Shown here one piece after another: positions 1-14,998 of a stretch of 15,535 bases of DNA. The notes beneath the pieces are model-generated. The model saw nothing but the letters and a program-made list of their open reading frames with translations, was not told the DNA's origin and did not search any database. Position 1 is the first letter of the stretch; each line of letters starts with the position of its first letter. The position numbers and the translations under genes are program-made. This stretch comes from a virus (lineage: Duplodnaviria > Heunggongvirae > Uroviricota > Caudoviricetes). The stretch lies in the IMG/VR virus record IMGVR_UViG_2634166457_000017, positions 1-15,535 of that record; one strand, 5' to 3'.

Positions 1-1227
1 GTGGCAGGCACAAACAAACTGAGTGATAAAAAATTAAGATCGCTTCTCGGCGTAAAGCGGGATTCAGTAATTACCATTGCGGATGGTGAAGGATTAAGCA
101 TCAAAGTATCCATGATGGGATGCATTAGTTGGGTTTTCTCTTATCGTCTTGGTGGGCGTGGGAGCAAGTTAGAGCGCATTGTTCTTGGGCGTTACCCTGA
201 CATGTCGTTGAAAATGGCTAGGGAGAAGAGGGAACTATGCCGAAAATGGTATGCGGACGGGCTGAATCCACGACTTGAATTAGAACTTAGCGCAGAAGAA
301 AACCTTAACCCCGTAACTGTCCATGATGCCCTTGAATATTGGCTAATTCATTACGCAAGAAAAAAACGTAGTGACGAGGAACTCGTGCGGGCGCAATTAC
401 GTAAGCATATTTATCCGCGTCTTGGCCACTATCCGTTATCCCGGTGTGAAACGCGTCACTGGGTGACATGTTTTGATGAAATTAACCAGTCCAGGCCAAT
501 CACTGCCGGGCGAATGTTCCAGATTTGTAAACAGGCCTTAAGATTCTGCAAGGTTCGCCGTTATGCCTCATGTGATGCCCTGGCTTTTATGACAATCCAG
601 GATGTAGGGCAACCATCGGGGCAGCGTGATAGGGTGCTGTCAGATAGTGAGTTAGCTGATGTATGGCGGTGTACTTATAGCGATGAACAGCAATTTTATT
701 ATCTTCGTCTGCTTAAGTTGCTTGTGCTGTTTGGGGCGCGAACAATGGAAGTAAGATTATCCCGGTGGAGTGAATGGGATTTTCAGTCATGGATTTGGAC
801 GGTTCCTAAAGAACACAGCAAAACTCGTGAAAAAATAGTTCGTCCAATTCCAGAGGGCATTCGCCCATGGATTGAGGATCTAAAAAAGGAAACGGGAAAA
901 ACAGGAATTGTACTGGGTGAAGAACGTTCCCGCCAGGCTGCTTCGCTTAAAGGGCGTAGGCTATACAAAGATTTTCATCATAATGAGCCATGGACGCTTC
1001 ACGATTTGCGCAGAACATTTTCTACAGGTTTAAATAATATGGGTATTGCGCCACATATTGTAGAGCTTTTACTTGGTCATGCATTGCCGGGGGTGATGGC
1101 TATTTATAACCGTAGTCTGTACTTACCTGAGAAAATGGATGCGTTGAATAAGTGGTATGGCCGATTAGAACTTCTGGCTGGTAATCATCAAAATGTGGTG
1201 CTGTTACCTGTATCGAATAGAGGTTAA
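1..1227 (+). CDS. int: Tyrosine recombinase / phage integrase (P4-like, arm-binding N-terminus)
   Basis: 408-aa ORF; C-terminal catalytic region shows the R..HxxR..Y pattern (WTLHDLRRTFST, LLGHA, AIYNRSLY). N-terminus resembles P4-family integrase arm domain. GTG start sits at the window edge, so the true start could lie upstream. Confidence 0.85.
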   Translation: MAGTNKLSDKKLRSLLGVKRDSVITIADGEGLSIKVSMMGCISWVFSYRLGGRGSKLERIVLGRYPDMSLKMAREKRELCRKWYADGLNPRLELELSAEENLNPVTVHDALEYWLIHYARKKRSDEELVRAQLRKHIYPRLGHYPLSRCETRHWVTCFDEINQSRPITAGRMFQICKQALRFCKVRRYASCDALAFMTIQDVGQPSGQRDRVLSDSELADVWRCTYSDEQQFYYLRLLKLLVLFGARTMEVRLSRWSEWDFQSWIWTVPKEHSKTREKIVRPIPEGIRPWIEDLKKETGKTGIVLGEERSRQAASLKGRRLYKDFHHNEPWTLHDLRRTFSTGLNNMGIAPHIVELLLGHALPGVMAIYNRSLYLPEKMDALNKWYGRLELLAGNHQNVVLLPVSNRG

Positions 1228-1318
1228 ACTGATATTACGGGCATAGGTCGGCCAACCGAAAAGCGGGAAACCCTACCCGCCTGGCTCGTAAAGTATTTAG
1301 GGCGTTGAGGGTAGCGCA

Positions 1319-2248
1319 ATGGCTAACGACATTAAAATTCCTTTTCAGTATTGCAACATTGAGCGTGCATCAAGATTGCTGGGTTGCGAGATTAGCGATC
1401 TCGTGAATTTAGGTGTTACTAAAAAAATAGCTTTATGCCTAAATTTATTTGATGCTCGCGCTGTTTTATATATGAATACTGATAGCAAGTCTGCAACTGC
1501 TTGGTTTGATACCAGAAATGCAAAATCGACCACATCACTGATGGGGAACAATATTACTGAATACTCCAGGTTTCATCTTTTCAGATACAATTATAACGAG
1601 GAGACAGATGAAACTATACACGCGCCTTTATTCGGTCAAGACTCAGAAAACGGATGCTTTAGCTCTATTGGTAGGGCTTATGGATTGTGGCGCCTTTGGA
1701 GTGGGCTGGAAGAACTACAAAATTTTGGAGAGTATTCCCTAAGTGGTTTTGAATTAACCCCGTGTCATCCAGAAACTGATAATCCTGCCGTACAACTTTT
1801 AATGGTTGGTGAAGATAGTGATTATGATGAAGAAGACGATCAAATATTAAAGAATAATATTTCTATAAATGACTTGTGGATTACCGCTCATGATATAAGG
1901 CGACTTCTTGACTGTGGTGGCGATTATTTTACGCTAACAGATAATTTTGAATCTGTAGAACCTCACAAGATGAATGGCAATGAAATTGTGCAACATTCTG
2001 CTGAAAGACATGCAAGAAATCGAGAGCAAATTTTAATGGTTGCTATGCGTTTTAAAGAAGAGCAACAAAATACTTTTAATGAGACCTGCAGAAAAAACGA
2101 TGGAACGATTAACTATTCTGCTTGGGCTCGTGAGTTGATCGCCAGACCTGATTGGTTCATTAATAGTGAATTGCCAATAAAAACAGAAACAAAAATAGCA
2201 GCAATTTTAAGTAATGCTCATAAGAGGCCGAGTGAAAGGTCGCAGTAA
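1319..2248 (+). CDS. Hypothetical protein, AT-rich accessory gene of unknown function
   Basis: 309-aa ORF with GAGGGT Shine-Dalgarno 6 nt upstream of ATG; visibly more AT-rich than flanking genes; no recognisable catalytic motif (no P-loop, no HNH, no DEAD); possible helix-turn-helix-like N-terminus (ERASRLLGCEISDLVNLGVTKK), acidic cluster DSDYDEEDD. Confidence 0.6.
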   Translation: MANDIKIPFQYCNIERASRLLGCEISDLVNLGVTKKIALCLNLFDARAVLYMNTDSKSATAWFDTRNAKSTTSLMGNNITEYSRFHLFRYNYNEETDETIHAPLFGQDSENGCFSSIGRAYGLWRLWSGLEELQNFGEYSLSGFELTPCHPETDNPAVQLLMVGEDSDYDEEDDQILKNNISINDLWITAHDIRRLLDCGGDYFTLTDNFESVEPHKMNGNEIVQHSAERHARNREQILMVAMRFKEEQQNTFNETCRKNDGTINYSAWARELIARPDWFINSELPIKTETKIAAILSNAHKRPSERSQ

Positions 2249-2267: not shown

Positions 2268-2306
2268 AAGCATACTGATATATTTATAAGCATTATCAGT
2301 ATGTTT
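2268..2306 (+). terminator. Possible intrinsic terminator after accessory ORF
   Basis: Perfect 10-bp inverted repeat CATACTGATA (2271-2280) / TATCAGTATG (2294-2303) followed by TTT; loop is long (13 nt), so weak call. Confidence 0.3.
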
Positions 2307-2385
2307 CTATGATTACTACTGTGTTTTAATCCAGTATTAAAGATTGCAAAATAGCCTCCGCAATCATAGATACAGTGGAGGCAAT

Positions 2386-2670
2386 ATGACAAAAACCACA
2401 TTCATTCCCCCAACTCCAGAACAACGCCGGGCGCTTCTTGAAGAATACGGTTTTGAATTTGATCGCCGTATCCGTGAAAAGGAATGCCAGGAAATCACCA
2501 GTCTGTCGCGCTCAACTCGCTTCAAAATGGAAAATGAAGGGCGTTTCCCGCCTCGTTGTCATTTCGGGCGCAATAGCTGTGCGTGGCTTCTCTCTGATGT
2601 GCTTTGGTGGGTTCGTAACCCACCTGCTGTAGATAAAGTCAATAATCCGTACGGTAAGAAAGCTGCATAA
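2386..2670 (+). CDS. alpA: AlpA-family transcriptional regulator / excisionase-like DNA-binding protein
   Basis: Translation contains ITSLSRSTRFKMENEGRFP...WLLSDVLWWV, matching the AlpA winged-helix signature. Start placed at ATG 2386 (GGAGG 4 nt upstream) rather than the ORF-track start at 2344. Confidence 0.75.
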   Translation: MTKTTFIPPTPEQRRALLEEYGFEFDRRIREKECQEITSLSRSTRFKMENEGRFPPRCHFGRNSCAWLLSDVLWWVRNPPAVDKVNNPYGKKAA

Positions 2671-2850
2671 GGGGGGAGTTATGACACATAAAACAAAGGC
2701 GACCGGGGGCGGTCGCCAATGGGAAAACACTAAACATAAGCCCGAACATCATAGCGGTTTGCTGACTGGTGGGCAATCTGTCAGGTTTGCACCAATGACT
2801 CCAGGTTTAACCGAGGGTCATTATGGTGAATATGCTGACTTGCTGGTGGG

Positions 2851-3048
2851 CTATTCCTGCTCTTTAACATCGCCATTCTGCGATGTTTTCCAGGTATGCG
2901 ATCCCATTTTTGTGCGCCTGTACTCTTTAAGGAACTTCTCAAGGACAAACGCACATGGCGCAAATCTTTCCTGTTCTTGTTCGCTTACCGCATTTTTGCG
3001 TTGTTTTTTCCTGGATGAAGATAATTTCTTTAATGATTTGTCAGTCAT
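2851..3048 (-). CDS. Small basic hypothetical protein (uncertain)
   Basis: 65-aa minus-strand ORF in the same frame as the downstream RHH gene; weak SD; lysine/arginine-rich N-terminus. Could be a shadow ORF. Confidence 0.25.
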   Translation of the reverse strand: MTDKSLKKLSSSRKKQRKNAVSEQEQERFAPCAFVLEKFLKEYRRTKMGSHTWKTSQNGDVKEQE

Positions 3049-3300
3049 CGTAGATACCTGTAACCCTGTGCGCCACAGTTCACCGCACCACGGCGCTGGT
3101 GATGGTTACTCCTGCTCTTTGGCCTTGCGGCGCTTTAGTTCTGCTGGAGCTAATCAATCATTGTATATTAGACGTGGGATCTTTTTTTCATCGCTCCTGC
3201 ATATACGCTCATTACTGACGTGTTCATTGCTGATGCAATTTCCTAGGAGGAAAACATATAAAAACAGGGAGCCAAACCAGTATATTTTTTGCTGCATGAG

Positions 3301-3486
3301 TTATTCCTTATCAGCCTCTTTGTTTTTTTTACGCTGGCGGCGTTTGATTTCGCCGCGCATGGCAGTAACGATAAATTGCGCGTCTGTTTCGTTTTCTTCT
3401 TTTACCAAATTCATTTCGCTTAAAACTTCTAGAGGTACTCTAGCTGTTTTTTGTTGTGACTTGTTGTTGGTTGTACCTGTTGGCAT
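3301..3486 (-). CDS. Ribbon-helix-helix (Arc/MetJ-like) transcriptional repressor
   Basis: 61-aa ORF with strong SD (TAAGGAG, 7-nt spacer); segment RVPLEVLSEMNLVKEENETDAQFIVTAMRGEIKRR follows the beta-strand/helix/helix pattern of Arc repressor (EVL..EEN..); divergent from the early operon and adjacent to a palindromic operator. Confidence 0.6.
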   Translation of the reverse strand: MPTGTTNNKSQQKTARVPLEVLSEMNLVKEENETDAQFIVTAMRGEIKRRQRKKNKEADKE

Positions 3487-3551
3487 CTCTGTTCTCCTTA
3501 CTGTTAGGTGGTGTTCAGTATACGGAGAAAAAAAATAAAAAAAGACTTGAA

Positions 3552-3596
3552 GTGCAAGTCACCTAAAAGTAACCTAGATTTCAAGGTGACTTGCAC
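3552..3596. promoter_or_regulatory. Palindromic operator in divergent promoter region
   Basis: Perfect 13-bp inverted repeat GTGCAAGTCACCT (3552-3564) / AGGTGACTTGCAC (3584-3596) with 19-bp spacer, between the minus-strand RHH gene and the + strand early operon; candidate -35 TTGAAG at 3548-3553 overlaps the left half-site. Confidence 0.55.
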
Positions 3597-3674
3597 CAAA
3601 AAGCAACGCCCCGCACTGTTGGAGCAGTAACGGGGCATCTAACCACCAACGATAACGATAGTATCGAGGTAGCT

Positions 3675-3878
3675 ATGTTAAATCATACCACACACCCGCA
3701 AGGGCGGGATTCGCACAACCTGAATAAATATATCTGGCGTTTTATCGCTCTGAGCACGGCACAACCGCGCGTGATTACCATTGAGGCCACCAGCGAACAG
3801 GAAGCACGTCAGCAATCTCCTGATGGCTGCGTGATGGTATTCGCTGCCCGTATCCGTCAGGGGGGGAGCCATGCATGA
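3675..3878 (+). CDS. Small protein, possibly Icd-like host cell division inhibitor (P4 kil-region type)
   Basis: 67-aa ORF from ATG 3675 with GAGGT SD; pattern YIWRFIAL...EATSEQEARQ...FAARIRQG resembles small Icd-like proteins of P4-type elements as I recall them; position upstream of primase matches the P4 early operon layout. The ORF-track start at 3591 is TTG inside the operator and is unlikely. Confidence 0.4.
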   Translation: MLNHTTHPQGRDSHNLNKYIWRFIALSTAQPRVITIEATSEQEARQQSPDGCVMVFAARIRQGGSHA

Positions 3879-4098
3879 TGACCGTTATTTTAAATCAATG
3901 AGCCATGCAGAAAATGCACTGACTAACAGTGAATGCTTGCGGCAAATATTGCTTATCTGGCTTGATGGTTTAAGTGATGCGCCGGAAGATGAGCGTGAAT
4001 CTAATCTTGCTGGTGCGTTTATTTCATTACTCGATACGGTAATCGTCGAATTAAATAAAGCGATCGAAATTCACGATAAAAAAATAAACGCGGAATAA
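3871..4098 (+). CDS. Hypothetical small protein
   Basis: 75-aa ORF, GGGGGGAG SD immediately upstream, overlaps previous stop by 8 nt (translational coupling). Confidence 0.45.
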   Translation: MHDDRYFKSMSHAENALTNSECLRQILLIWLDGLSDAPEDERESNLAGAFISLLDTVIVELNKAIEIHDKKINAE

Positions 4099-4103
4099 AA
4101 ACC

Positions 4104-4391
4104 ATGAAACAGAAAATTTCTGGCTTTACTGCCAGCGGCCCCGCTCGTCCTGAATTTATGAACGGCGATATTTACCGCGATAAATATGGCGGTACGGTAA
4201 CGATTAAAGGCGTGGCAGAACGGCGCATCACCTACCGCCGTGAAGGTTATGAATATGACTGCGTGATGCCTGTTTATCAATTCCGGCGTGATTTTAAGCT
4301 GGTGGGCCATCGTAAAGCCGTAAATAAGAAACGTGCAGCAAGCTATATCCGCAAAATCCGTGAAATGCTGGTCGCAGGGGGTAAGAAATGA
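4104..4391 (+). CDS. Hypothetical small basic protein
   Basis: 95-aa ORF; stop overlaps primase start (ATGA), suggesting coupled translation. Confidence 0.5.
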   Translation: MKQKISGFTASGPARPEFMNGDIYRDKYGGTVTIKGVAERRITYRREGYEYDCVMPVYQFRRDFKLVGHRKAVNKKRAASYIRKIREMLVAGGKK

Positions 4392-6136
4392 AACTGGCAC
4401 CGAACGTAAAAAAACAACCACGCGGAATAAAACACAAAGACACAGAGGTAATTATTTTCGCGGGTAGTGATGCGTGGGCACATGCAAAACAGTGGCAGGA
4501 GCAGGACGGCCCCGCATCCGGCGATGATGTGCCGCCTGTGTGGCTTGGGCCAAATCAGCTTGCCGAACTGGATGCGCTGAAAATTGTTCCGGATGGGAAA
4601 AAACGCGTAAGGCTGTACCAGGCCGGAGAACTGGATTTAGTGGAGACCAAAAAGATTGGTCAGAAGCTGGCGGCGGCAGATATTCAGGATGCGAATTTTT
4701 ACCCCGAAGGGATGCACGGACAGAAATGTGAGAACTGGCGGCGCTATCTGAATGCTGAGCGTGAAAATATTGCCGCAGGGATTACCATGCCGGAACAGAA
4801 AAAATCACAACTTTCACAGATGGCAGACAGTGAACGGGCACAGCTTCTTGCTTCCCGCTTTGATGGTGTCTGCGTCCATGCAGAAAGTGAAATCGTTCAC
4901 GTATGGCGTGACGGGGTATGGTGTCCGGTCAGCACAATGGAGCTGAGCCGCGAAATGGTGGCGGTTTATTCAGAACACGGGGCCACGTTCAGCAAGCGTG
5001 CAATTAATAACGCCGTTGAAGCATTAAAAGTTATTGCCCAGCCAATGGGGGAGCCGTCCGGCGATTTGCTGCCGTTCGCCAATGGTGCGCTTGACCTGAG
5101 AACAGGAGAATTTTCCCCGCACCAGCCGGATAACTGGCTCACCACCCACAACGGCATTGAGTACACGCCGCCAGTACCAGGGGAGAATATCCGCGACAAC
5201 GCGCCAAACTTTTATAAATGGCTTGATCACGCTGCCGGAAAAGACCCACACAAGATGATGCGCATATGTGCCGCGCTCTACATGATTATGGCGAACCGGT
5301 ACGACTGGCAGATGTTCATTGAGGCCACCGGAGACGGCGGGAGCGGTAAGAGTACATTCACGCACATTGCCACACTACTTGCCGGAAAACCGAACACGGT
5401 GAGCGCCGAGATGACATCGCTTGATGATGCTGGTGGGCGTGCGCAGGTTGTCGGGAGCCGCCTTATCGTTCTGGCAGACCAGCCGAAATACACGGGCGAG
5501 GGCACGGGCATCAAGAAAATCACGGGCGGCGACCCCGTGGAGATTAACCCGAAATATGAAAAGCGATTCACGGCGGTAATCAGGGCGGTTGTGCTGGCAA
5601 CCAATAATAACCCGATGATATTCACCGAACGGGCCGGAGGCGTGTCACGTCGTCGGGTGATATTCCGGTTCGATAACATCGTAAGCGAGGCAGAAAAAGA
5701 CAGGGAGCTACCGGAAAAGATAGCGGCAGAAATCCCTGTCATTATCCGCCGCTTGCTGGCGAACTTTGCCGACCCTGAAAAGGCACGGGCTTTACTCATT
5801 GAACAGCGAGACGGTGATGAAGCACTGGCGATAAAGCAGCAGACGGATCCGGTTATTGAGTTTTGCCAGTTCCTTAACTTTCTGGAAGAAGCACGCGGCC
5901 TGATGATGGGCGGCGGCGGTGACTCTTCCAGGTACACGACCAGAAACAGCCTTTACCGCGTCTATCTGGCGTTTATGGCGTATGCCGGCAGGAACAAGCC
6001 GCTGAACGTGGCTGAGTTCAGCAAAGCTATGAAGCCAGCGGCGAAAGTTTACGGACATGAATATATAACGCGCAGGATTAAAGGGATTACGCAAACCAAC
6101 GTGACAACAACAGACGACTGCGACGCGTTTTTATAA
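4388..6136 (+). CDS. Phage/plasmid primase-helicase, P4 family (D5_N-like plus SF3 NTPase)
   Basis: 582-aa ORF; Walker A GDGGSGKST; GGGGG SD upstream; immediately followed by iteron array. No obvious TOPRIM EGYATA motif seen, so it may be helicase/initiator only. Confidence 0.85.
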   Translation: MKLAPNVKKQPRGIKHKDTEVIIFAGSDAWAHAKQWQEQDGPASGDDVPPVWLGPNQLAELDALKIVPDGKKRVRLYQAGELDLVETKKIGQKLAAADIQDANFYPEGMHGQKCENWRRYLNAERENIAAGITMPEQKKSQLSQMADSERAQLLASRFDGVCVHAESEIVHVWRDGVWCPVSTMELSREMVAVYSEHGATFSKRAINNAVEALKVIAQPMGEPSGDLLPFANGALDLRTGEFSPHQPDNWLTTHNGIEYTPPVPGENIRDNAPNFYKWLDHAAGKDPHKMMRICAALYMIMANRYDWQMFIEATGDGGSGKSTFTHIATLLAGKPNTVSAEMTSLDDAGGRAQVVGSRLIVLADQPKYTGEGTGIKKITGGDPVEINPKYEKRFTAVIRAVVLATNNNPMIFTERAGGVSRRRVIFRFDNIVSEAEKDRELPEKIAAEIPVIIRRLLANFADPEKARALLIEQRDGDEALAIKQQTDPVIEFCQFLNFLEEARGLMMGGGGDSSRYTTRNSLYRVYLAFMAYAGRNKPLNVAEFSKAMKPAAKVYGHEYITRRIKGITQTNVTTTDDCDAFL

Positions 6137-6144
6137 TTTTAGAC

Positions 6145-6380
6145 AAAAGCCCTCTACCCCTTCTACCTTAAGAAAATAATTGCATATATTTCATATGGAT
6201 AGGTTTGGTAGATGGCAGGTAGAAGGCACTTAAAAGCCCTCTACACCCTCTACCATAATTCAGGGCATTTGTGAGGGGGTGGTAGATGGCAGGTAGAGGG
6301 CCAAAAAAGCCATCTACCCCGCTGAAAGCCGCGCCATTACTGACCTGAAAGATGATTAGGTAGAGAGGTAGAGGAGGTGC
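6145..6380. repeat. Iteron array / putative origin of replication
   Basis: Eleven copies of hexamer TCTACC/GGTAGA in about 230 bp, organised as alternating-orientation 20-23 bp units (e.g. GGTAGATGGCAGGTAGAAGG at 6207-6226 and GGTAGATGGCAGGTAGAGGG at 6281-6300; AAAAGCCCTCTACCCCTTCTACC at 6145-6167 and AAAAGCCCTCTACACCCTCTACC at 6232-6254), with an AT-rich stretch 6170-6198; directly downstream of the initiator gene. Confidence 0.65.
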
Positions 6381-7120: not shown

Positions 7121-7369
7121 ATGCCAGTGACATTTGAAGAAGTTCAGCAACATAAAAAGTTTCATGGTTTTGATGATCTGGAAACCACGACAGCAAAAAA
7201 ATATCGCCGTCTGCTTTCTTCCGATGCGTTATTTGTTGTGGATCATCATGATTTTCTGCGCAGCTCACTGACCGGGGAAATTTTCGCAACCAACCGTGAG
7301 CAGGTGGAAGCGATGATCGAATATCTGTGGAAAATAAGACGCAGAATGCGGGATCCCGTGAAACAATAA
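7121..7369 (+). CDS. Hypothetical protein
   Basis: 82-aa ORF with GGGGAG SD; followed by an intrinsic terminator. Confidence 0.55.
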   Translation: MPVTFEEVQQHKKFHGFDDLETTTAKKYRRLLSSDALFVVDHHDFLRSSLTGEIFATNREQVEAMIEYLWKIRRRMRDPVKQ

Positions 7370-7378
7370 AGCGATAAA

Positions 7379-7407
7379 GGCCTGGATTTTTTCCAGGTCT
7401 TTTTTTC
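7379..7407 (+). terminator. Rho-independent terminator ending the replication module
   Basis: Stem CCTGGA (7381-7386) / TCCAGG (7392-7397) with 5-nt loop, followed by TCTTTTTTT. Confidence 0.6.
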
Positions 7408-7423
7408 AGGTTTTGTAAATTAT

Positions 7424-7453
7424 TTGTTCGTGGTTGTTCCAGGTTGTTCGGTG
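7424..7453. repeat. Three tandem 10-bp direct repeats upstream of the capsid operon (candidate activator binding sites)
   Basis: TTGTTCGTGG / TTGTTCCAGG / TTGTTCGGTG at 7424-7433, 7434-7443, 7444-7453, just upstream of a TTTACA (7467-7472) -35-like hexamer. Confidence 0.5.
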
Positions 7454-7643
7454 ATTCTGGCTGATGTTTACATACTGATTTTTATGTATATCTTGAAGAG
7501 TGGCACTCAGACGTGAGCCGCCACAATGCCGCCTGACCCCCTGCGCGATGCCGGGTTGATCTGCGAGATGTCGAGAGTGTCGGGCGGCGCTCCCTCCGTG
7601 TTGGTTTCACGTCCTGAATCTTAACCAATACGAGAAAACCTTC

Positions 7644-13931: not shown

Positions 13932-14204
13932 ATGACTGATAACGTAGATTTGCGTCATCATAAAAATCAATTGGTTACGATTACAGGCGGCGTTGTAGCC
14001 TGTTACGATTATCGTAATCCCTTTCTGTATGACAGGGTGGCAGGTATGGTGATTTCCGCCCCTCCTTTGCAAATTGACAACGTAGTGTGTGATGTCGAAT
14101 TAACTCCGTACGTTAAACGTACGGAGTTCCCGGCAGGCTTAGGTTCCGACGAAATTCGTCGACACCTCCCGGCAGGAACAGCGAGAATTACGTCGCTGAT
14201 GTAG
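13932..14204 (+). CDS. Hypothetical protein
   Basis: 90-aa product from ATG 13932 (ORF-track start 13929 is TTG); last ORF of the island; weak RBS. Confidence 0.4.
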   Translation: MTDNVDLRHHKNQLVTITGGVVACYDYRNPFLYDRVAGMVISAPPLQIDNVVCDVELTPYVKRTEFPAGLGSDEIRRHLPAGTARITSLM

Positions 14205-14998
14205 CCTACGAAATTTTCGCAGGTTAATTATCTATCTGCTTAATCGCTAACCCACTGATTTTTATGATGACTCAAATTTGAAGCATCTTTGTTTACGTTG
14301 ATATTGTGTCAAAGCCCTTTTTCGGGCTTTGGCCTAACCCGCTGATATTTTCGGAAACAGCCATCGACTGAGGCCGGAGTAACCGACTATCTTTGAGATA
14401 GTCAGATGTACGAAATTTGTGCGGGACTAAAAGTCCCGCGCAAATTCACTACATCACCGTAATGGTTATGCAGTCCACCAGCAACCATAACGATTTCCGT
14501 TACTGTTGATGTGCTTTTTTGCTGGTAAGGCGTAATCCGTTGATTGTTCCACAAACCTCAATTTGAGGAAGCCGGAAAACTCACCCGCCAGATTCTGAAT
14601 GGTGAAAATCACCGGGGATCTGAATAGGCATTTCCTCTATGGAGGTCGCACCGTTTTCGGGAGAAGGTGCGATCATGTTCGTCATACCGGTTCCGTTGAA
14701 ATGAAATAGCCCTGTATGGGCATCATCACCATGCAGGGGATCAAAATCTCTGTAGCTTCATGTTGCCGGGACCGCCAGCCTCGCCAAATTTTTGCGTTTG
14801 TGAAAAACGAAAATTATTACGTGCTTTGCCCTCTCCTGTTTCTGATGTTGTATACTCGCGGCCTTCTAATTGTGCTGGTGCTTTTTTGAGATTGTGGCGC
14901 TGTGTATCGATCCGTATATCATTCGGTGTATCACTTTTGATAAATTGCTACGTGTGAATTTGTTTTTAACTGACAAAAATCAGTGGGTTATGTGAATT

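Follow-up and report, generated by a model that had tools for sequence, protein, structure and literature searches.

How the phage-inducible chromosomal islands (PICIs) of Gram-negative bacteria switch from silence to induction is poorly understood; what is known is that expression of alpA is required. What, then, stands between alpA and the genes for repression and replication in such an island? Here, the question is put to positions 2671-3300 of a viral DNA of 15,535 nucleotides (nt), IMG/VR record IMGVR_UViG_2634166457_000017, the whole of which is called the window. Judged by its genes, the window is a capsid-forming PICI (cf-PICI) satellite of Escherichia, because integrase, AlpA, primase, single-stranded DNA-binding protein (SSB), capsid, protease, portal, TerS and TerL are all encoded in it.

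A preliminary description of this segment suggested that it might hold a small peptide, an antisense or processed RNA, or a degenerate gene. Comparison with related islands gives these suggestions a more definite shape, in that an antisense small RNA is likely and a small protein gene, orf65, is supported by conservation. The same comparison indicates that the segment is the downstream part of a leftward operon convergent to alpA. On the opposite strand runs a long reading frame that has been kept open. What appears to be new here is an unannotated family of predicted small RNAs, together with a stop-free frame that would bridge alpA and icd across the repressor genes.

A predicted leftward terminator behind alpA

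The preliminary description placed a perfect 8-base-pair (bp) GC hairpin 28 nt behind the stop codon of alpA. The hairpin is indeed there (arms 2698-2705 and 2710-2717), with seven of its eight pairs G-C and a loop of 4 nt, and together with its flank it recurs in more than 100 related islands. It is, however, no plus-strand structure belonging to alpA. The minus strand reads GGCGACCGCCCCCGGTCGCC and then TTTGTTTTAT; on the plus strand, the stem is followed by AATGGGAA, which contains no run of U. Because the U tract (TTTGTTTT) is found on the minus strand only, the hairpin is read as a terminator of leftward transcription.

Nor is the hairpin likely to be a matter of chance. A consensus terminator scan of positions 2300-3900 returned eight terminator-like sites, against 1.7 expected from shuffled sequences, and listed this hairpin first. 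It stands downstream of both orf65 and the putative repressor gene ylcI. The block that is conserved across islands starts exactly at the A tract (the U tail of the minus strand) and reaches as far as the last minus-strand gene, at its stop codon; this boundary is the same whatever gene stands on the alpA side. A boundary at the U tail is the signature of the end of a minus-strand transcript. Three unrelated stems occupy this place among relatives, GGCGACC/GGTCGCC, GGCCACC/GGTGGCC and GGCGGCTCC/GGGGCCGC, the pairing persisting while the sequence differs. The prediction from sequence that the hairpin is the intrinsic terminator of the convergent minus-strand unit is solid.

Genes of the leftward operon

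Read leftward, the operon runs from ylcI through a small gene called here orf47, the orphaned tail of an older ylcI, and orf65, to a 3' untranslated region (UTR) of 160 nt and the terminator (Table 1). Several of these elements were not in the preliminary description: orf47, as a third minus-strand open reading frame (ORF), the orphan tail, and the strand of the U tract; nor was the openness of the plus-strand frame in nearly all relatives.

The product of ylcI gives a weak ribbon-helix-helix (RHH) match to CB_ParB_C in Pfam. It is a probable RHH repressor, encoded by what would be the first gene of the leftward unit. A sequence search of the PDB for solved structures that might speak to YlcI function returned no match, and neither orf65 nor orf47 matches NF041551, the model that recognizes ylcI. 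In the divergent promoter region between ylcI and icd lies a perfect 11-bp inverted repeat, GTGCAAGTCAC / GTGACTTGCAC (3552-3562 and 3585-3595), nested in longer repeats at 3544-3563 and 3580-3597. This is probably an operator for a YlcI-type repressor.

Both of the short minus-strand ORFs listed in the preliminary description exist, and only one of them is credible as a gene. This is orf65, which recovered 137 tblastn matches among the fetched loci; its 46 protein variants are all intact, and its core carries the motif ERFAPCAF.LE.FLKEY. Databases hold 43 clusters, all from Escherichia, and the annotation pipeline PGAP calls it a coding sequence (CDS) in E. coli. No match was found in PADLOC or Pfam, and its AlphaFold2 model, two helices with a predicted local distance difference test score (pLDDT) of 64, is of low confidence and too weak for a fold search. 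On this comparative evidence, orf65 is a real, conserved gene for a small basic protein. The other ORF (2781-2963) has no family match in Pfam, NCBIfam or PHROGs and nothing else to support it, and it is taken to be spurious. A further minus-strand ORF, 2639-2776, was considered as coding and rejected; it runs through the terminator and is not conserved.

In the window, the 3' end of ylcI carries a cassette. It supplies both orf47 and a new C-terminus for YlcI (KKNKEADKE, then stop), so that where canonical alleles end in EIKRRQRRKAKEQE the window allele ends in EIKRRQRKKNKEADKE. The spacer between orf65 and ylcI is 57 nt in most relatives versus 252 nt in the window. The orphan tail at 3106-3134 exists because insertion of the cassette left the old 3' end behind.

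The protein that orf47 would encode has a hydrophobic N-terminal helix (IYWFGSLFLYVFLLGNCI) followed by a charged tail. It is rare, occurring in 2 of 5426 E. coli genomes and in two clusters among 5.8 billion proteins, and it is absent from the contigs of GTDB representatives that were scanned. Its four distinct variants are all intact, equal in length and placed directly after ylcI, with a ratio of nonsynonymous to synonymous substitution (dN/dS) of 0.16-0.55. Thus described, orf47 is a probable cargo gene for a small membrane protein. When it was considered as a type I toxin-like small membrane peptide, Pfam, NCBIfam, PHROGs and PADLOC offered no family match for it, and a dedicated antisense RNA was not looked for.

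A predicted antisense small RNA in the 3' UTR

Inside the 3' UTR, the minus strand carries a predicted sigma-70-type promoter. Its features were followed through a set of 117 terminator-bearing copies of the element (66 distinct sequences), 114 of which could be parsed. The spacing between -35 and -10 is 17 bp in all 114, and the sequence of the spacer varies. The -35 hexamer is TTGCCC across the copies, with TTGACC in two. The -10 hexamer appears as TATGAT, TATCAT, TATTCT, TATGCT or CATTGT; in its entropy profile, A2, T3 and T6 are invariant and the positions between them vary. Invariance at A2, T3 and T6, combined with a variable spacer and a variable transcribed body, is the pattern expected of a working promoter.

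Transcription from this promoter to the terminator would produce an RNA perfectly complementary to codons 4-21 of the plus-strand frame. Promoter and terminator together define what is likely to be an antisense small RNA. Another set, of 179 copies collected through the -35 region, has transcribed bodies of four classes (52-55, about 56, 67 and 82-83 nt), each with a canonical terminator of its own, and the motif GUUUAGUG is kept within one class. The element itself shows no codon periodicity. Rfam has no match to this RNA, whether the window is searched at the gathering threshold or 2600-3700 at E <= 10. Nothing was found in the literature for its sequence string, with the EcOnc lists not checked. 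It is thus predicted to represent a new, unannotated family that is missing from Rfam. Identity with Esr41 of enterohaemorrhagic E. coli (EHEC) was considered and rejected, Esr41 lying on SpLE1 and being unrelated.

Such an RNA might, of course, act in trans, either as an immunity RNA of the P4 CI or P1 C4 type or as an Hfq-type small RNA, with the icd leader, the late operon, the helper phage or host mRNAs as targets. Its 5' body, single-stranded and rich in U, leads into a terminator and U tail and would suit such a role, as would the conservation of GUUUAGUG in one class; PGAP-level similarity ties the element to sequence upstream of icd, and immunity RNAs are known from this zone of Gram-negative PICIs (PMC10111431). 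The searches, however, make this improbable. The Rfam models C4 (RF01695) and isrK (RF01394) fail at the small-RNA site, matching other positions in two relatives (L117 and L129). The best duplex within the window, -23.2 kcal/mol at 7497-7520, was equalled by 13 of 40 shuffles. Cognate pairs of small RNA and icd leader bind no better than non-cognate pairs (P = 0.98). Finally, the PGAP-level similarity remains weak because nhmmer gave no second copy of the element, the icd leader included.

The C4 and isrK matches in those relatives (L117 4263-4730 and L129 2958-3621) lie inside CDSs annotated "Icd-like protein". Part of the "Icd-like" annotation in such islands may consist of translated RNA genes.

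A further element lies opposite the icd leader, at 3590-3700. A nearly invariant extended -10 on the minus strand (TGTGGTATGAT) falls within icd codons 3-5 (-10 region 3680-3690). Next in order come a stretch complementary to the start codon of icd and to its Shine-Dalgarno (SD) sequence, a hairpin (about 3600-3632) and a U-rich tail. The hairpin has 13-14 bp and many compensatory changes, and it folds better as a minus-strand RNA in 42 of 43 variants, with G-U pairs numbering 86 versus 12. Rfam offered no match to this candidate (E <= 10, 2600-3700). It is probably a second unannotated antisense RNA.

A frame kept free of stop codons

Directly behind alpA, as the preliminary description had it, an ORF of 285 amino acids (aa) opens with a strong SD sequence, GGGGGGAG at 2671-2678, and an ATG at 2681. 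Its 3' third is antisense to the RHH-type gene (3301-3486), as was also noted. The SD and ATG are kept in the relatives in which the block is linked to alpA. Across relatives, this frame has a median of 274 open codons in 139 of 144 distinct sequences; the other two plus-strand frames close after 23 and 5.

Is this openness a matter of chance? The wobble position of the frame is also that of ylcI, orf47 and orf65. Because it is shared, a plus-strand stop can arise only from a T-ending codon before CAN, or from a C- or T-ending codon before TAY. Among alleles of ylcI and orf65, the codon in front of CAN ends in T in 3 of 112 distinct contexts; elsewhere the count is 433 of 1341 (Fisher 2e-14). 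This P value, like the others here, overstates independence, since the loci in the comparison share descent. In 20 contexts before Tyr, no codon ends in C or T. The sites at risk are not frozen; they vary among synonymous codons that do not end in T (CCA/CCG/CCC, CGC/CGA/CGG, GGG/GGA).

Control genes from the same islands show no such avoidance, with 30% vs 35% in long genes and 28.5% vs 32.6% in small rightward genes. In the other genes of the window, 119 antisense stops were observed and 114 expected.

The openness extends toward icd. In 63 of 82 distinct loci, the 500-1000 nt that separate the terminator from the icd ATG contain not one stop in the icd frame, as against medians of 15 and 12 in the other frames; in most loci, the long frame closes only with the stop codon of icd itself. 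In the icd frame, the strictly intergenic DNA between ylcI and icd (about 197 nt) is open in 16 of 19 clusters; in the other two frames it never is. Shuffled, this intergenic sequence is open at P = 0.023 per region. These comparisons demonstrate, at the level of sequence, that stop codons are selectively excluded from the plus-strand frame; both the direction of the effect and the controls are clear.

Openness without a conserved protein

Selection against stop codons is, of course, what a protein-coding gene would show. One such gene would be an N-terminally extended Icd-like protein of 300-480 aa, antisense to ylcI and orf65, with the 285-aa ORF of the window as its frameshifted pseudogene. 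The databases give this some encouragement: 1282 protein clusters match the plus-strand ORF at E <= 0.001, and among the 120 matches listed, most are 300-480 aa long and are named "Icd-like". In one relative (L004), PGAP calls the first 41 codons of the frame "Icd-like, incomplete". The purging of stops and the usual end of the frame at the icd stop codon fit as well.

These names arise, however, because the frame of the homologues continues into icd. The extension itself, like the whole 285-aa ORF, has no match in Pfam, NCBIfam or PHROGs; nor does the ORF match NF033153 (Icd-like), the Icd domain of the window residing in a separate ORF, 3675-3878. Amino acid replacements in the plus-strand frame look random (mean BLOSUM62 score -1.09), while those in the overlapping ylcI frame are conservative (-0.16). 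The 5' part of the frame that is free of gene overlap has no codon periodicity. Its composition merely mirrors the Lys/Glu/Arg-rich genes on the opposite strand. Its length ranges from 83 to 598 aa across relatives, its start point also varies, and icd has an SD, an ATG and an upstream promoter region of its own. An extended Icd-like protein is thus improbable.

The comparison indicates, then, that the openness of the plus-strand frame is conserved and that the protein is not. Where the preliminary description judged the ORF to look non-coding, it was right in so far as no family match exists and replacements are random; the frame is nevertheless kept stop-free by selection, and is not noise. 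The conserved plus-strand protein for which that description looked to homologous islands is not what they hold: they keep the frame open, usually into icd. One practical consequence is that pipelines annotate the same DNA inconsistently, as two small genes or as an "Icd-like" protein of 300-480 aa.

A proposed translated bridge across the repressor genes

Why might a frame be kept translatable if its product does not matter? A possible answer begins with alpA, the expression of which is needed for induction. With no plus-strand terminator after alpA, rightward transcripts would enter the repressor cassette in antisense. Translation of the open frame would keep ribosomes coupled to the polymerase, and the transcript would thereby escape Rho-dependent termination. 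Transcription from the alpA side could then oppose that of the leftward repressor operon and extend as far as icd and the genes for replication. By pairing with codons 4-21, the small RNA would block or cleave the transcript and so uncouple translation. Together with YlcI, it would hold the island silent.

The whole reading, in which the tail of a leftward operon is crossed by a frame that serves as a translated bridge over the antisense repressor cassette and is opposed by an antisense RNA, stands at about even chances, its mechanism being one that we infer. A stronger version is distinctly more doubtful. It holds that a frame of about 1 kb is selected only for translatability and acts as a ribosome-covered bridge, on which transcription from the alpA promoter would pass the repressor operon, in antisense, and the divergent promoter region to enter icd and the replication genes. 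The cis-antisense small RNA would gate this bridge, as might the length of an A run (A8 or A9) described below.

If true, satellites would have a means of switching to induction that has not been described before, one in which translation-coupled read-through links alpA to replication. The frame would also serve as a clean natural example of a sequence selected to be translatable while its protein is not under selection. The locus offers a defined set of parts for such a switch: a convergent operon for an RHH-type repressor, one unannotated antisense RNA at the least, with a second probable, and a stop-free frame across the repressor.

A plainer account sees only the tail of an ordinary operon. 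The hairpin would be its terminator, the 3' UTR a stability or termination element without a promoter of its own, and the open plus-strand frame a by-product without function. The solid assignment of the terminator suits this account. So does the fact that an antisense frame sharing the wobble position is the one most easily left open, with a probability of 0.4-0.5 per gene given the protein sequence. For the window taken alone, openness is not significant (P about 0.08 by synonymous permutation within genes), and the loci share their ancestry.

Four features are difficult to place in it. Sites at risk vary synonymously and still lack T-ending codons, which the control genes do not avoid. Intergenic DNA, where no antisense gene dictates the sequence, is open in one frame only, in those 16 of 19 clusters. 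The two insertions that distinguish the window, the 201-nt cassette and 45 nt in the 3' UTR, are both in frame and without stops. Conservation of the promoter follows the functional hierarchy of the -10 positions. The ordinary operon tail is therefore a rather unlikely explanation.

Several observations weigh against the translated bridge itself. The window P value and the common descent of the loci, just mentioned, are two of them. About half of the related islands carry Bro or ORF6N in the place of alpA and lack the SD and ATG; any start codon in these islands lies farther upstream and is weaker. The type B -10 hexamer, CATTGT, is weak. Folding energies of the small RNA's terminator show no clear strand bias, with 22 variants favouring the minus strand and 20 the plus strand. 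No trans target of the small RNA was found among window duplexes or icd leaders. Lastly, in the window the frame does not reach icd: its TAA (3536-3538), inside an A8 run, lies 136 nt short of the icd ATG and out of frame with it.

This last point depends on a single nucleotide. In the public E. coli contig GCA_051592065.1, in which 3951 nt are identical to the window bar one base, the run is A9, giving an ORF of 316 aa that ends 45 nt before the icd ATG. The A8/A9 difference may be an assembly error or genuine slippage or phase variation. Loci frame-shifted in this way number 18 among 82; in 11 of these 18, the end of the frame still lies 19-32 nt short of the icd ATG. Could programmed slippage at the A run bring ribosomes into the icd frame? 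This was considered and rejected, as that frame has a stop between the run and 3573.

The island and its relatives

Rightward from alpA, the window encodes an Icd-like protein, phrog_2196, DUF4222, a D5-type primase, SSB, major capsid protein, prohead protease, portal, TerS and TerL. The prototype cf-PICI EcCIEDL933 has the same plan, and alpA is required for its induction (bioRxiv 10.1101/2022.09.08.507074). Related E. coli islands share a common order. A convergent block, made up of a YlcI/YnfO gene and in some cases a small "hypothetical protein", follows alpA or, in its place, a Bro-N / ORF6N gene, and is itself followed rightward by the Icd-like and primase genes. The related element occurs in 695 of 5426 complete E. 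coli genomes (about 12%). In strain Sakai, the island is absent at the cspD site.

The features of the window are collected in Table 1. The RNA motif found between integrase and the next gene is present in relative L003 as well. Just downstream of the primase gene lie direct repeats of 27 nt (6145-6171 / 6232-6258) and 22 nt (6206-6227 / 6280-6301), which are probably replication-origin iterons. A 275-nt intergenic region (7369-7643) precedes the capsid operon and contains a strong terminator-like hairpin on the plus strand at about 7371-7405; the non-significant duplex site of the small RNA, 7497-7520, falls within it as well. Near the right end of the island, inverted repeats stand at 13948-13977 / 14248-14277 (30 nt, 90% complementary) and at 14248-14263 / 14975-14990 (16 nt, 100% complementary).

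Table 1. Features of the window, in order of position
Feature	Position	Strand	Details
Integrase gene	1-1227		
int-alpA RNA motif, between integrase and next gene	1236-1302	+	Rfam RF02996, 55.2 bits vs gathering score 35.8
phrog_7144 gene	1319-2248		
alpA	2386-2670	+	Pfam Phage_AlpA; stop codon 2668-2670
SD and ATG of plus-strand frame	2671-2683	+	GGGGGGAG at 2671-2678, ATG 2681; directly after alpA stop
Plus-strand open frame	2681-3538	+	285 aa; antisense through predicted small RNA, orf65, orf47 and ylcI
Predicted small RNA	2690-2741	-	about 52 nt; GCUUAUGUUUAGUGUUUUCCCAUUGG, then hairpin and U tail
Intrinsic terminator (predicted)	2690-2717	-	stem 2717-2710 / 2705-2698, loop 2709-2706, U tract 2697-2690 (TTTGTTTT)
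Sigma-70-type promoter (predicted)	2748-2776	-	-35 TTGCCC (2776-2771), 17-bp spacer, -10 TATGAT (2753-2748)
45-nt insertion in 3' UTR relative to most relatives	2777-2821 (approximate)		in frame and stop-free for plus-strand frame
orf65	2851-3048	-	phrog_21027 full length (residues 1-65 vs profile 1-65), E 5.9e-45
Orphan 3' end of original ylcI	3106-3134	-	reads ...KRRKAKEQE, then stop
Cassette in ylcI 3' end	3135-3330	-	201 nt counting 5-nt overlap; from alignment to relative L001
orf47	3154-3297	-	47 aa; starts 4 nt after new ylcI stop codon
ylcI/ynfO-family gene	3301-3486	-	NF041551, E 2.3e-17, 62.7 bits vs cut-off 30; phrog_949
A8 run	3528-3535	+	length sets end of plus-strand frame; A9 in GCA_051592065.1
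icd (Icd-like)	3675-3878	+	NF033153
D5-type primase gene	4388-6136	+	

Comparison with known systems

The nearest parallel is the immI region of phages P1 and P7 (c4, icd, ant). P1 icd takes part in down-regulating the expression of ant, a repression that is completed by C4 RNA (PMC8198154). The window resembles this arrangement in that an Icd-like ORF heads an operon and an antisense RNA is complementary to its 5' part. Biere et al. are said to have found in 1992 that C4 blocks translation of icd and thereby brings about Rho-dependent termination before ant. The differences are considerable. P1 C4 is a processed piece of the same transcript, whereas the RNA predicted here is on the opposite strand and cis-antisense. 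It has no Rfam C4 match; the frame that would be translated extends for about 1 kb, antisense to the genes of a repressor operon; and the arrangement is known here through its sequence.

The immI region of phage P22 joins the RHH repressors Arc and Mnt with sar, an antisense RNA that has its own promoter and terminator, among divergent and convergent promoters. The window likewise combines a small gene for an RHH-type repressor with a short cis-antisense RNA that has its own promoter and terminator, both predicted. Here, however, the RNA starts 9 nt after the ATG, where sar overlaps the ribosome-binding site of ant, and there is no sequence relationship. Further, Arc and Mnt are repressors, whereas YlcI is a putative one only.

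In Gram-negative PICIs, immunity RNAs have been reported in a "dynamic zone" between alpA and the replication genes (PMC10111431). The small RNA predicted here occupies the same zone as P4 CI RNA, C4 (RF01695) and isrK (RF01394), and differs in that the covariance models match elsewhere only, in L117 and L129. Small RNAs of the MicL/DapZ type arise in 3' UTRs, as short RNAs from an internal promoter near the end of an operon whose intrinsic terminator they share. For the present RNA, in contrast, no trans target was found, and its only certain complementarity is to the opposite strand.

Finally, EHEC has in nog1, laoB and asa long ORFs that are antisense to annotated genes in the wobble-sharing frame. 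The frame described here differs from these in two respects: its comparative signal is one of openness only, not of protein, and it links two modules, those of alpA and icd.

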